IMG/VR virus record: IMGVR_UViG_2681813226_000023
Location: 1-6,025 of that record
Length of the DNA stretch: 6,025 bases
Origin: a virus
Lineage: Duplodnaviria; Heunggongvirae; Uroviricota; Caudoviricetes
Strand: one strand, 5' to 3'
Positions 1-6,025 of the stretch are shown here, one piece after another (position 1 is the stretch's first letter; each line of letters opens with the position of its first letter). Below the pieces are notes generated by a model. It was given only the letters and a program-made list of their open reading frames with translations, was not told the DNA's origin and did no database searches. The position numbers and the translations under genes were made by a program.

Positions 1-180
1 CTATTCCTGCTCTTTGGCCTTGCGACGCTGGCGGCGTTTGATCTCGCCTTGCATTGACGCAATGATGAATTGTGATGTGCTTTCGCCTGATTCTTTCACT
101 AATTCCATGTCGTTTACTATTTCGTGTGGTACACGAGCCTTTAGAGCTTGTGATTTTGCGTTTGTTGTACCCGTTGCCAT
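1..180 (-). CDS. Small ribbon-helix-helix (Arc/CopG-like) DNA-binding protein, 59 aa; candidate repressor of the divergent operon
   Basis: ATG at 180..178 preceded by a GAGGA Shine-Dalgarno (rc of 184..188); stop TAG at 3..1. Product MATGTTNAKSQALKARVPHEIVNDMELVKESGESTSQFIIASMQGEIKRRQRRKAKEQE has the beta-strand/helix/helix pattern (KARVPHEIV..ESGESTSQFIIASM) typical of RHH regulators and a basic tail. The rest of track ORF 1..363 upstream of this Met is not supported. Confidence 0.55.
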   Translation of the reverse strand: MATGTTNAKSQALKARVPHEIVNDMELVKESGESTSQFIIASMQGEIKRRQRRKAKEQE

Positions 181-241
181 TTCTATTCCTCTGTTGGATT
201 GGTGGGGGACAGTATACACAGAAAAAGCACAAATAAAACTC

Positions 242-283
242 TTGACGTGGGCCACACCTAAAGAATATAGTGGGCCACACCTT
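242..283 (+). promoter_or_regulatory. Sigma70-like promoter (TTGACG-N18-TATAGT) flanked and overlapped by two direct 13-bp operator-like repeats GTGGGCCACACCT
   Basis: TTGACG at 242..247 and TATAGT at 266..271 with 18-bp spacing; GTGGGCCACACCT at 247..259 and again at 270..282 (23-bp period, about two helical turns). Sits in the divergent region next to the RHH gene. Confidence 0.4.
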
Positions 284-662
284 GAGGTTGTCAAGGTGCA
301 TAAATGCAAAGCCCCGCAAGTGTCGTTACCACTCGCAGGGCTTCTAACCACCAACGATAGCAACAGTATCGAGGTAGCTATGAGAAATCATACCACACAC
401 CCGCAAGGGCGGGACTCGCACAACCTGAATAAATACATCTGGCGTTTTCTGGCCCTGAGTGCCGGAGAATCTCAAATCATCCACGTAACCGCCTGGACGG
501 AACGCGAAGCGCGTAGCCGTTGCCCGTCAGGTTGTGTTGCTGTATTCGCCGCCCGTATTCGTCAGGGGGTGTGCCGTGCTTAAAACCTTCCGCGTTTTTT
601 CCCGTGCTGTTAACAAGCGCGGCTATACCGTTGGCATCACGCAGAACGTGAAGGCCGTTAAT

Positions 663-953
663 ATGCAAGCGGCGATTGATTCAGTAATCAGTAATTCCGG
701 TAAAGCAGGTTTATCACATGTAATTATTGCAGCAGTACATGAATTAAAAGGGGGGGCATTAATGAAGGAAATTACATTACACGAAGCCGCTGAACGTGCG
801 CACCAGACAGAAATTATTTGCCGACTTCTTGAGGTGTACCCTAATAAATTAAATGATGGTGATATATCCGCATTAGCTGGCCTTCTGGCAAAACTTTCTG
901 GAAGTGTTGCGCTGTGGTTAATTGATGAGAGATTTAAACGCTATGAACAATAA
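663..953 (+). CDS. Hypothetical protein (96 aa from ATG 663; alternative start ATG 762 gives 63 aa)
   Basis: Same frame as track ORF 534..953. ATG 663 has AAGG 8 nt upstream; ATG 762 is preceded by a G7 tract (750..756) at SD distance. Stop TAA 951..953 overlaps the next start in an ATGAACAATAA arrangement (translational coupling). No recognisable motif. Confidence 0.5.
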   Translation: MQAAIDSVISNSGKAGLSHVIIAAVHELKGGALMKEITLHEAAERAHQTEIICRLLEVYPNKLNDGDISALAGLLAKLSGSVALWLIDERFKRYEQ

Positions 954-1185
954 CAAACGCGTAATTTGCGAATTGAATGAACTCACACAAAGCGCAATAT
1001 CTTACAACAATGCCGTAAGTGAGATTATTAACGTCTGGTTTGAATCGCTGACAAATTGCGAGCGTGACGAGTCAACGACAAGATTAACCTTTGCCATTTC
1101 TGAATTACTGAATATTTCCACCAGCAAAATAGAGAGCATATCAGAGAAGATTAACGGCTTATCAGGTCACGCTATCGGAGAATAA
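943..1185 (+). CDS. Hypothetical protein (80 aa)
   Basis: ATG 943 lies inside the stop region of the upstream gene (coupled); stop TAA 1183..1185. Track ORF 922..1185 trimmed to this start. No recognisable motif. Confidence 0.5.
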   Translation: MNNNKRVICELNELTQSAISYNNAVSEIINVWFESLTNCERDESTTRLTFAISELLNISTSKIESISEKINGLSGHAIGE

Positions 1186-1190
1186 AAATA

Positions 1191-1490
1191 ATGAAACTTA
1201 AATATTCTGGCTTAACTGCCAGCGGCAAAACTCGCACTAAATTCATGTGCGGGGATATTTACCGCGATAAGTACGGCGGCACGGTAATGATTAAGGGCGT
1301 GGAGGAACGGCGCGTAACTTACCGCCGTGAAGGCTACGAATATGATTGCGTTATGCCTGTTTATCAGTTCAACCGTGATTTTTCTCTGGTACAGGCAGCG
1401 CCCCGCAGTAAGCCAACCAGCAGGGAGAAAGCACGCGCCAATATTCAGGAAATAAAAAAGATGCTTAACGTATTCAGGGGTAAAAAATGA
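1191..1490 (+). CDS. Hypothetical small phage protein (99 aa), possibly DUF4222-like
   Basis: ATG 1191 with GGAG at 1177..1180; stop TGA 1488..1490 overlaps the next start (ATGA). The core YRDKYGG..V.YRREGYEYDCVMPVYQFNRDF resembles a small conserved phage family as I recall it; the family name is not verified. Confidence 0.55.
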   Translation: MKLKYSGLTASGKTRTKFMCGDIYRDKYGGTVMIKGVEERRVTYRREGYEYDCVMPVYQFNRDFSLVQAAPRSKPTSREKARANIQEIKKMLNVFRGKK

Positions 1491-4375: not shown

Positions 4376-4405
4376 GTCTCATTCGTAGAAAATTTTGCTT
4401 TTCAA

Positions 4406-4428
4406 AAAAGTTACACGAAAAGTTACAC
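4406..4428 (+). repeat. Tandem direct repeat, 2 x AAAAGTTACAC with 12-bp period; candidate TerS-binding (cosB/pac-like) elements
   Basis: AAAAGTTACAC at 4406..4416 and 4418..4428, non-coding, 23 bp upstream of the terS-like start codon. Confidence 0.5.
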
Positions 4429-4450
4429 CCCCTCAAAACGAGGTTTTTGC

Positions 4451-4939
4451 ATGGCATTAACGACCAAAAAAAAGCGGTTTGCTGATGCGTTATCAAGGGG
4501 CGCAAATCCCACGGAAGCCGCTATACATGCGGGATACAGCGAAAAGACCGCAAGGGTTAAAGGCTGGCAGCTATCCAACGATCCTGAGGTGAAAAAGTAT
4601 CTTAAGGCTGTAACTTCTGATGTAACTTTTCAGGTTACAAAACCGAAAAAAGTTACAAAGAAAGTTACCGAAAAAGTTACACCGGAACGGGCATCAATTA
4701 ACACCATTGAGATGATGGATAACGGCCTACCCGACCCCATCAAAGCAATGGGCAGGATACTGATTGACAACATGGACACAGATCCAAAACTGGCTTTAGA
4801 TGCCGCGTTTAAGCTGGCCCAGTTCACCCACCGCAAGATCGGCAGCATTGGGAAAAAAGAGGTTAAAAAACTCAATGCCGCTAGTGTCTACTCAAATCGG
4901 TTCCCCATCCCTAAGCCACCAACAGACTTAAAACACTGA
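4451..4939 (+). CDS. terS: Terminase small subunit-like protein (Terminase_2-type N-terminal HTH), 162 aa
   Basis: ATG 4451 with GAGG 8 nt upstream; N-terminus MALTTKKKRFADALSRGANPTEAAIHAGYSEKTARVKGWQLSNDPEVKKYL matches the canonical TerS signature (LT.K...F......N.T.AAI.AGYS.KTA). Stop TGA 4937..4939. The GTG 4334 extension in the ORF track is not supported. Confidence 0.75.
   Translation: MALTTKKKRFADALSRGANPTEAAIHAGYSEKTARVKGWQLSNDPEVKKYLKAVTSDVTFQVTKPKKVTKKVTEKVTPERASINTIEMMDNGLPDPIKAMGRILIDNMDTDPKLALDAAFKLAQFTHRKIGSIGKKEVKKLNAASVYSNRFPIPKPPTDLKH
4610..4683. repeat. Cluster of six (A)AGTTAC(A) motif copies inside terS: two inverted, one degenerate, three tandem with 12-bp period
   Basis: GTAACTT 4610..4616 and GTAACTTTT 4622..4630 (inverted); GGTTACA 4633..4639; AGTTACA 4651..4657, AGTTACC 4663..4669, AGTTACAC 4675..4682 (period 12). 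Same unit and period as the non-coding pair at 4406..4428; encodes the KKVT/KVT repeat linker. Confidence 0.55.
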
Positions 4940-4950
4940 GGTAGCGAACT

Positions 4951-5112
4951 ATGAGCGAATACATCACAGACCCTATTGATGTACTCACGGAAATCATGAA
5001 CGACAAGCAGCAGTCGACCGAAATACGGTTACAGGCCGCCGCTGTTCTGATGCCATATTTTCACGAAACACTAAACCCGTGCTTCCAGGAGGAGGAAGAA
5101 GATGATCTGTAA
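4951..5112 (+). CDS. Small acidic hypothetical protein (53 aa); absent from the supplied ORF track
   Basis: My own translation: ATG 4951 with GAGGT at 4938..4942; product MSEYITDPIDVLTEIMNDKQQSTEIRLQAAAVLMPYFHETLNPCFQEEEEDDL; stop TAA 5110..5112 overlaps the start of the next gene by 11 nt. Confidence 0.4.
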   Translation: MSEYITDPIDVLTEIMNDKQQSTEIRLQAAAVLMPYFHETLNPCFQEEEEDDL

Positions 5113-6025
5113 AAACATGAAAGGCGTGTCAGCAGTTCGCGCCGCCAGCGTGCTGGCATCGTGTAAATTTAGCCATGCTGACGCTATAGAGATGACGAAA
5201 AGAAATGATCCGGCAGTATCGAAATTTCTTGAAAAATCCATCGTCAACAGAATGACTACGGATAACATGCCGTCGCTGGTGGCAGAGCCGATAGTAAGAG
5301 AGCTTGGCGAGTATATTTTTTCGCAGTCTGTACCAGGCAAGCTAATCAGCAGCGCGCTTAATCTTCCGTTTGGCGCAAAATTGCATTCAATATCAGGCAA
5401 GGGTAGTAAATGGCTTAAAGAAGCCGAAGAAATCCCTGTCAAAGAGGGAGAAGTAAACGAAAGTGCGCTAAAATTGTGCAAACTTGGCGCTATTGTGATG
5501 CTGAATAACGAGCTAATCAAATTTAGCACCCCTGGTACAAATTCAGCGATCAGAGACTTGATCACATCGGAATCGGTGAAAGAAATAGATAAAAAATTTC
5601 TTTCCAGTGATCAGGAGGTGGCTGGCGTATCCCCTGAGGGCGTGCTTAATGGTGCTGATGAGGCCGAAAACTTCATAGAGATTTTCAAAAAGCACATAGC
5701 GAACGGTAACACGCTTTCCACGTCGTCGCTAATATTGCCCGTAGAAAACGCCTTACAGCTTACTGATGCTGAGTTCTGGCAGATAGAGCTTTTGAGAATA
5801 CCGGTAATTGTGAGCGAACAGGCGGATCGCATGATGCTGATAGACGCTCAAAAGCTGATTATTAACGTTGAAGCCACGGTTATAACCCCAACTGATGAGG
5901 CGGTAATAAAAACCGAATCAGGGGCGGTTAGCCTTTTCCAGAATGACGCTACAGCGTTCAGGGCAATCACCTATTGCGGATGGCAAAAACTCGATAAGGC
6001 CGTCACCGTTCTGGCGAAAAGCTGA
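5102..6025 (+). CDS. Putative HK97-fold major capsid protein, compact form (307 aa) without an obvious long N-terminal scaffold domain
   Basis: ATG 5102 preceded by GGAGGAGGAAG (5088..5098); alternative ATG 5117. Stop TGA 6023..6025. Central segment KWLKEAEEIPVKEGEVNESALKLCKLGAIVMLNNELIKFS...SAIRDLITSESVKEIDKKFLSSDQEVAGVSPEGVLNG follows the conserved HK97 gp5 pattern (KPES E-loop, ELL.D, G.G...EG.LN) as recalled from memory. Function is a hypothesis; the gene itself is well supported. Confidence 0.55.
   Translation: MICKNMKGVSAVRAASVLASCKFSHADAIEMTKRNDPAVSKFLEKSIVNRMTTDNMPSLVAEPIVRELGEYIFSQSVPGKLISSALNLPFGAKLHSISGKGSKWLKEAEEIPVKEGEVNESALKLCKLGAIVMLNNELIKFSTPGTNSAIRDLITSESVKEIDKKFLSSDQEVAGVSPEGVLNGADEAENFIEIFKKHIANGNTLSTSSLILPVENALQLTDAEFWQIELLRIPVIVSEQADRMMLIDAQKLIINVEATVITPTDEAVIKTESGAVSLFQNDATAFRAITYCGWQKLDKAVTVLAKS

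Follow-up and report, generated by a model that had tools for sequence, protein, structure and literature searches.

We analyzed a 6,025-nucleotide stretch of viral DNA (IMG/VR record IMGVR_UViG_2681813226_000023, positions 1 to 6,025; hereafter "the window") and conclude, with a probability of roughly 0.7, that it spans the regulatory, replication, and late genes of a classical Gram-negative phage-inducible chromosomal island (PICI) of the EcCI type, which would exploit lambdoid helper phages whose head genes run HNH, terS, and terL, terS and terL encoding the small and large terminase subunits. The island is an already catalogued kind of satellite, neither capsid-forming nor a novel class. 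A first-pass annotation of the window had listed a regulator, a primase-helicase, an iteron origin, TerS, and a small acidic open reading frame (ORF), all of which proved real and correctly placed in ORF and family scans, and its recognition of a phage satellite of the PICI type agrees with the anatomy, attachment (att) ends, and gene set of the island. As we discuss below, its further suggestion of a capsid-forming or otherwise unusual element does not agree with the structure of complete islands.

Island boundaries and gene content

Many Escherichia coli genomes (O157:H7, O103, O121, and others) have a chromosomal island that matches the window at 98-99.9% identity, and what we say of the complete island is taken from near-identical annotated complete genomes. 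In the closest of these, the island lies in the chromosome between cspD/yljB and clpS, is ~9.3 kb long, and is bracketed by direct repeats that include the att core ATGATAGTTAT; the PICI EcCIIHE3034 has been published with the same core and the same cspD-clpS site (Fillol-Salom et al., 2018, ISME J, Table S1). Its genes run int, a 257-aa protein of unknown function, alpA, and then the genes of the window (pri, ori, terS, and the capsid homologue). The window covers roughly two-thirds of the island, on its right-hand side, with int and alpA just to its left and attR 0.45-0.8 kb to its right. The integrase gene points inward and encodes a 407-aa tyrosine-type enzyme with Phage_integrase and Arm-DNA-bind_3 domains, and AlpA is a 74-aa helix-turn-helix regulator (PF05930, E 3.4e-16). 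Downstream of the capsid-like gene, only 0.45-1 kb of repeat-rich non-coding DNA precedes clpS.

Complete cspD-clpS islands contain no terL, portal, protease, scaffold, connector, tail, or lysis genes. The full prophage that the first-pass annotation had considered for the flanking DNA is absent from the closest genomes, where the flanks are the core chromosome genes cspD/yljB and clpS and the tail and lysis modules of an ordinary prophage are missing. The island thus has the size and ends of a classical PICI (~8-15 kb, its own att, and no tail, lysis, portal, or terL genes) and also its genes, namely integrase, AlpA, primase-replicase followed by an iteron origin, and a capsid-morphogenesis homologue with terS.

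The annotation had regarded a capsid gene as alien to classical PICIs. This premise is wrong, because a capsid gene is among the published PICI components (PMC10085698; PMC10111431; PMC6092414). SatelliteFinder uses integrase, regulator, primase-replicase, capsid morphogenesis, and terS as the five core PICI components and sets capsid-forming PICIs (cf-PICIs) apart by portal, connectors, and terL (PMC10085698). In the survey of Mageeney et al. (PMC10111431), 21 of the 29 reference Gram-negative PICIs carried a capsid gene. Moreover, c1499 of EcCICFT073 is labelled a capsid protein, PmCI172 encodes a capsid homologue, and Ccm of the Staphylococcus aureus pathogenicity island (SaPI) SaPIbov5 is cited as precedent (PMC6092414). 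The main value of the analysis is thus corrective: small enterobacterial islands of the PICI type normally carry a capsid gene together with terS, and this combination should therefore not be flagged as a new capsid-forming element.

Likely helper phage, probable cos site, and candidate TerS repeats

The late features that bear on packaging lie at the right of the window.

4326-4393, plus strand: cos-like segment, 74-78% identical to the HNH-terS intergenic DNA of Shiga-toxin (Stx)-type lambdoid phages.
4407-4683: array of AAAGTTAC or GTTAC(A) repeats with 12-bp spacing, two upstream of terS and, within terS, two inverted and about four direct.
4451-4939, plus strand: small terminase subunit TerS, 162 aa (Terminase_2, E 2.3e-10; phrog_641, E 3e-43).
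4951-5112, plus strand: 53-aa mini-protein with an acidic tail, ORF53 (phrog_641 positions 89-125, E 3.5e-7).
5102-6025, plus strand: stand-alone HK97-fold capsid-protein homologue, 307 aa, without protease or scaffold domain (PF05065).

As the annotation had stated, terS, the acidic ORF, and the capsid-like gene stand in a row, and the six-frame ORF listing shows neither terL nor portal between terS and the capsid-like gene.

In tblastn searches of phage genomes, both late proteins, TerS and the 307-aa protein, matched the same phages. These were long-tailed lambdoid phages that convert for Stx1a, Stx2c, and in some cases Stx2a, together with PPompW prophages, and their head module consists of HNH, terS, terL, a gene for a 645-aa fusion of S78 protease, scaffold, and capsid, and then the portal gene. 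TerS of the island is 46% identical to its counterpart in the Stx1a, Stx2c, and PPompW phages, conservation being highest in the C-terminal half and the linker being divergent; the 307-aa protein is 25% identical (pairwise E 6e-20) to residues 291-625 of the phage fusion, which comprise the capsid domain only. Judged from these sequence matches, Stx1a/Stx2c/PPompW-type lambdoid phages are the likely helpers, and naming the helper is an addition of this analysis. TerS and the capsid homologue of the island are accordingly read as standard genes for hijacking a helper, taken over from lambdoid phages of the Stx type, and not as equipment for making capsids of its own.

The cos-like segment points to the same phages. 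The island sequence CGCCCCCCGT at 4368-4377 agrees in 9 of 10 bases with CGCCCCCCCT, the published cos of phage Lys8385Vzw, which has 3' cohesive ends and was defined by PhageTerm (PMC7946995), and the ends of the Lys8385Vzw record fall inside the segment common to phage and island. A related island in Serratia, described below, retains the same G-run, and the C-run followed by TCTCA, of this motif. Close to the cos core, AAAGTTAC occurs in 6 exact copies compared with 0.24 expected, a count reached in 0 of 200 shuffles, and the phage counterpart of the array is five GTTAAC motifs right after the cos core. We infer that the AAAGTTAC repeats are candidate, cosB-like TerS recognition sites and that the cleavage site would be common to island and phage whereas the TerS-binding sites would be private to each. 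At 4646-4683, three 12-bp AAAGTTAC repeats within terS encode KKVTKKVTEKVT, in the divergent TerS linker, and a peptide repeat thus falls on the same bases as a possible DNA site.

The late cassette is present in 220 of 5426 complete E. coli genomes, at full length in all 220, and 1255 of the 5426 contain a head module of the helper type, consisting of terL and the gene for the protease-capsid fusion. When co-occurrence was searched with a chimeric query consisting of the cassette and a 0.8-kb terL segment (union of 1254 genomes), every cassette-bearing genome among the matches listed (60 of 60) had at least one extra match to the query, which is most simply a helper-type terL.

Sibling islands with the same late cassette

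The six-gene late cassette closes independent islands in three chromosomal contexts: cspD-clpS, tRNA-Pro, and Serratia tRNA-Met. Islands at tRNA-Pro (yejM-yejO) in O111:H8 and O26:H11 strains carry the same cassette behind a different integrase, and the O26:H11 island is the published EcCI11368 (catalogued in 2018, 8.5 kb). The island of Serratia aquatilis encodes a primase, TerS, a 54-aa ORF, and a 311-aa capsid homologue (45% identity) and ends ~300 bp before the tRNA-Met gene. Complete islands at all three chromosomal contexts contain no terL, portal, protease, or head-tail connector genes.

A further sibling, in strain 90-3040 (L013, 6280-19998), has identical TerS, ORF53, and capsid-homologue proteins and is inserted in the terL gene of a prophage. 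The host prophage is an HNH-terS-terL lambdoid, exactly the proposed helper type, and an arrangement of this kind has been published for helper-embedded PICIs (Mageeney et al., 2023, PMC10111431). We give this embedding more weight than the co-occurrence described above. Past its capsid-like gene, this island has no terL, portal, protease, scaffold, or head-tail connector of its own. The surrounding prophage carries an internal stop in terS and a frameshift in the portal gene.

In the tRNA-Pro islands (L008, 6770-8170; L009, 5400-6800), a RepA-family helicase precedes the late cassette and replaces the D5/P4-type primase, indicating that replication and late modules have been exchanged independently.

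The capsid homologue

The annotation's assignment of an HK97 capsid fold to the 307-aa protein was borne out by the PF05065 match, by structure prediction, and by fold comparison. The prediction used 68 sequences, a run with 6 sequences being unusable (predicted local distance difference test score 50.8). The protein has the HK97 fold, with Ccm among its fold matches, and contains neither a scaffold/delta domain nor a protease. A word-indexed protein search found only 6 relatives. By exhaustive profile search, the protein belongs to a small stand-alone subfamily (15 clusters at E<1e-30) that grades into ~2900 HK97-type capsid proteins, many of which are 630-670-aa protease fusions, and a scan of genome contigs gave a single locus, in Serratia. 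The ratio of nonsynonymous to synonymous substitution (dN/dS) is 0.08-0.17, which indicates purifying selection. An encapsulin reading of this protein was rejected on gene context.

Because the island encodes no scaffold, protease, or portal, the 307-aa protein would be unable to build a head alone. Like the element that encodes Ccm, this satellite encodes a homologue of the major capsid protein of its proposed helper. Our analysis suggests that the capsid domain probably joins helper procapsids, either as a Ccm-like determinant of size or shape or as an interfering subunit. The second of these roles is the weaker part of the model, because the capsid homologue of EcCICFT073 is dispensable.

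The 53-aa mini-protein

The phrog_641 region matched by ORF53 is the central/C-terminal helical motif of the TerS family. The 54-aa counterpart in Serratia (L006, 9843-10007) matches the same region, to position 126 (E 1.9e-6), and is 43% identical to ORF53. In BLASTP comparisons, ORF53 matched neither the island TerS nor phage TerS, the relation being detected only by the PHROG profile, and a homologue search with ORF53 returned only close E. coli copies. Its dN/dS is ~0.15. As a speculation, ORF53 may act on the helper terminase in the style of the Ppi or Rpp proteins of other islands. The full TerS encoded by the adjoining gene already holds this helical motif.

Proposed cycle

In the cycle that we propose, a lambdoid helper of the HNH-terS-terL type with a protease-scaffold-capsid fusion (Stx1a/Stx2c-converting phages and PPompW prophages) would activate the island, which would then excise and replicate from its CTCTACC iteron origin by means of its own primase-helicase. 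The island TerS, with its helper-like C-terminal half, would dock helper TerL, and its DNA-binding end and recognition repeats would differ from those of the helper. TerS would bind the AAAGTTAC repeats beside the helper-like cos core, so that helper TerL and HNH would cut and package island DNA. Finally, the 307-aa homologue would most likely co-assemble with the helper capsid protein, as Ccm of SaPIbov5 does, and the outcome would be a changed capsid size or spoiled helper heads. Diversion of helper TerL and HNH by an island TerS encoded next to a helper-like cos is the best-supported part of this cycle. The analysis itself establishes the gene identities, the capsid fold, the origin repeats, the similarity to cos, the island boundaries, and the co-occurrence with, or embedding in, prophages of the helper type, from which we infer that the island depends on a helper, that TerS binds the repeats, and what the capsid homologue does.

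We also entertain, as less likely than not, a broader possibility. The late cassette, comprising the cos core, AAAGTTAC repeats, TerS, the mini-protein with its TerS motif, and a capsid domain that lacks a scaffold, could be a hijacking kit of an uncharacterised kind directed against the HNH-cos lambdoid phages of enterohaemorrhagic E. coli, including Stx1a/Stx2c-converting phages. The mini-protein would act on the helper terminase in a Ppi- or Rpp-like manner, the capsid domain together with the helper fusion would yield small or defective heads, and Stx-phage output would be lowered or reshaped. If this were true, the effect on Stx-phage output would extend to every carrier of the island, or 4% of complete E. 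coli genomes. A concrete helper class, a probable cos site, and candidate TerS recognition repeats are what this analysis adds, and the addition is modest; with these in hand, the effect of the island on Shiga-toxin phage production is directly testable.

Weighing the alternatives

Several observations weigh against a classical PICI that exploits HNH-terS-terL lambdoid phages in the manner proposed. The co-occurrence of cassette and helper-type terL (60 of 60 listed) is confounded by the clonal lineages of Shiga toxin-producing E. coli. Coding, and not a role in DNA binding, could account for three of the AAAGTTAC repeats, which specify a KKVT peptide repeat, and the Serratia island has no comparable repeat array. 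In 2018, the TerS-encoding PICIs IHE3034 and 18098, which have a different late cassette, were not mobilised by resident prophages (PMC6092414). Finally, deletion of c1499, the lambda-E-type capsid homologue of EcCICFT073, left interference and transfer unrelieved (PMC10111431; PMC6092414), and the capsid homologue of the present island may thus be dispensable as well. The last result also bears on an unlikely alternative, in which the homologue is left over from captured late genes of the helper, is dominant-negative or dispensable and does not determine size, and island multimers are packaged in helper-sized heads. EcCICFT073 is indeed packaged in phage-sized capsids, removing its capsid homologue costs it neither transfer nor interference, and by simple arithmetic a 50-kb head would be filled by about five 9.3-kb units. 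However, a dN/dS of 0.08-0.17, ORFs that are intact in all 220 genomes, and a gene trio that Serratia has kept at 45% identity speak for selection on function, and both PmCI172, for which small capsids have been observed, and SaPIbov5 pair a capsid homologue with small capsids.

The capsid-forming element suggested by the first-pass annotation, an island that makes its own capsids and borrows only tails, is highly improbable. The islands at three chromosomal contexts and the prophage-embedded sibling all stop after the capsid-like gene, without terL, portal, protease, scaffold, or head-tail connectors, whereas the real cf-PICI of O157 (Sp7 / EcCIEDL933) has terL, portal, protease, and connector genes, and its capsid protein and TerS have no BLAST similarity to those of the window. 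That the capsid-like gene is the last coding sequence, with repeat-rich non-coding DNA beyond it, might be taken as the mark of a deletion remnant, a decaying prophage or a fragment of a cf-PICI rather than a working element. This is very unlikely, as this gene order, with the same end point, is found again in another genus and alongside other integrases, att sites, and replication genes (a primase in some islands, a RepA helicase in others), all genes are intact and under purifying selection, and the cos-like site and origin are preserved. A P4-like satellite, to which we assign almost no probability, would account for the TIGR01613 P4-family primase, the integrase with an Arm-DNA-binding domain, and AlpA, but Pfam, PHROG, and NCBIfam scans of all window proteins gave no Psu-, Sid-, Delta-, or Epsilon-like matches, the packaging genes and cos resemble those of lambdoid HNH-type phages rather than P2, and the architecture and att site agree with catalogued PICIs. 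The P4-like reading was rejected on gene context.

Regulation and replication genes

The remaining features of the window, in the regulation and replication part of the PICI and at the start of its late cassette, are as follows.

1-180, minus strand: YlcI/YnfO-family small protein, 59 aa (NF041551, E 1.2e-17; same annotation in near-identical genomes).
242-271, plus strand: promoter-like site TTGACG-18-TATAGT (sequence match).
247-259 and 270-282, plus strand: two 13-bp direct repeats GTGGGCCACACCT, 23 bp apart, overlapping the promoter-like site.
380-583, plus strand: homologue of an Icd-like host cell-division inhibitor, 67 aa (NF033153, E 4.3e-18).
762-953 and 943-1185, plus strand: two small conserved ORFs (phrog_1478 and phrog_5796; annotated in relatives).
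1191-1490, plus strand: DUF4222 protein, 99 aa (PF13973, E 1.5e-24).
1487-3235, plus strand: primase-helicase (pri-rep), 582 aa (D5_N, E 1.2e-15; DUF5906; Pox_D5; TIGR01613; phrog_864, E 2e-169).
3248-3480, both orientations: replication origin with CTCTACC iterons and degenerate copies (exact-motif count).
3586-3831, 3962-4156, and 4160-4321, plus strand: three small ORFs that travel with the late cassette (co-occurrence with terS and the capsid homologue).

The primase-helicase matches the TIGR01613 "primase, P4 family" signature. CTCTACC has 8 exact copies, all within 3251-3474, compared with 0.67 expected for the whole window, and 0 of 200 shuffles reach 8. The location of this origin 3' of pri-rep agrees with published PICI origins (PMC6092414). 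A DUF4222 gene also lies directly upstream of the replication gene in related islands (L003, L007, L008, L009, and L013).

The YlcI/YnfO-family gene is the sole leftward gene of the window, and its product is a candidate regulator. The promoter-like site and GTGGGCCACACCT repeats at 242-282 may form the operator of the rightward operon. A scan of the window for promoters and terminators gave no enrichment over shuffles; the site at 242-271 is the only strong sigma-70-like match. In L001, the version of the 13-bp operator-like repeat is GTGGCTGACACCT. The left edge of the window is mosaic: some genomes match 335-6025 at 99.9% but fail to match the first ~330 bases, and others match the whole window, including 1-335, at 98.3%. 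These two patterns suggest a recombination joint near the divergent promoter region.

To the left of the window, the 257-aa ORF between the integrase gene and alpA (L001, 10777-11550) occupies the usual slot of PICI accessory or defence genes; Pfam and PADLOC scans of this ORF gave no match. The three small ORFs at 3586-4321 are present together with terS and the capsid homologue in L007, L008, L009, and L013. The two at 3962-4156 and 4160-4321 have dN/dS values of 0.08-0.30, and none of the three had family matches in Pfam and NCBIfam scans or defence matches in PADLOC.

Comparison with known systems

The cf-PICIs EcCIEDL933 and EcCI2 resemble the island in having a left arm of int, alpA, pri-rep, and ori, and in encoding TerS and an HK97-fold capsid protein. 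They differ in that they also encode terL, HNH, portal, protease, and head-tail connectors, none of which the window's island has; the gene set of Sp7 / EcCIEDL933 comprises capsid, protease, portal, adaptor, terS, and terL. Among helper-embedded PICIs (PMC10111431), the 90-3040 sibling lies in a prophage terL, and gene A, of the Terminase_1 type, is among the sites recorded in the published survey, whereas the island of the window is chromosomal in the closest genomes, at cspD-clpS and not within a prophage.

Packaging specificity is likewise switched at the level of the small terminase, with use of helper TerL, by pac-type SaPIs, which have TerS and Ppi, and by Rpp of EcCICFT073. However, SaPI TerS serves headful (pac) packaging, and Rpp is not a TerS but binds helper TerS. 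The window, by comparison, has a true TerS homologue beside a helper-like cos core, followed by the separate 53-aa protein with a TerS motif. SaPIbov5, a cos-type SaPI of the HNH-cos phages phi12 and phiSLT, is also a satellite of HNH-dependent cos phages and has a helper-like cos, but has no TerS of its own. The helper capsid protein in the present case is a protease-scaffold-capsid fusion, of which the island copy retains the capsid domain only; Ccm of SaPIbov5 redirects capsid size, a role that the capsid homologue of the window may share.

The closest relatives are two catalogued islands. EcCIIHE3034 is integrated at the same cspD-clpS site with the same att core, and its left arm, as far as the primase, is 87-90% identical in nucleotide sequence to that of the window's island. 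Its capsid homologue, however, is of the lambda-E type and is accompanied by a decoration protein and a different TerS, and BLAST finds no similarity between these and the proteins of the window. EcCI11368 carries the same late cassette, consisting of three small ORFs, terS, the 53-aa ORF, and the 307-aa capsid homologue. The island of the window therefore combines a left arm of the IHE3034 type with a late cassette of the 11368 type.

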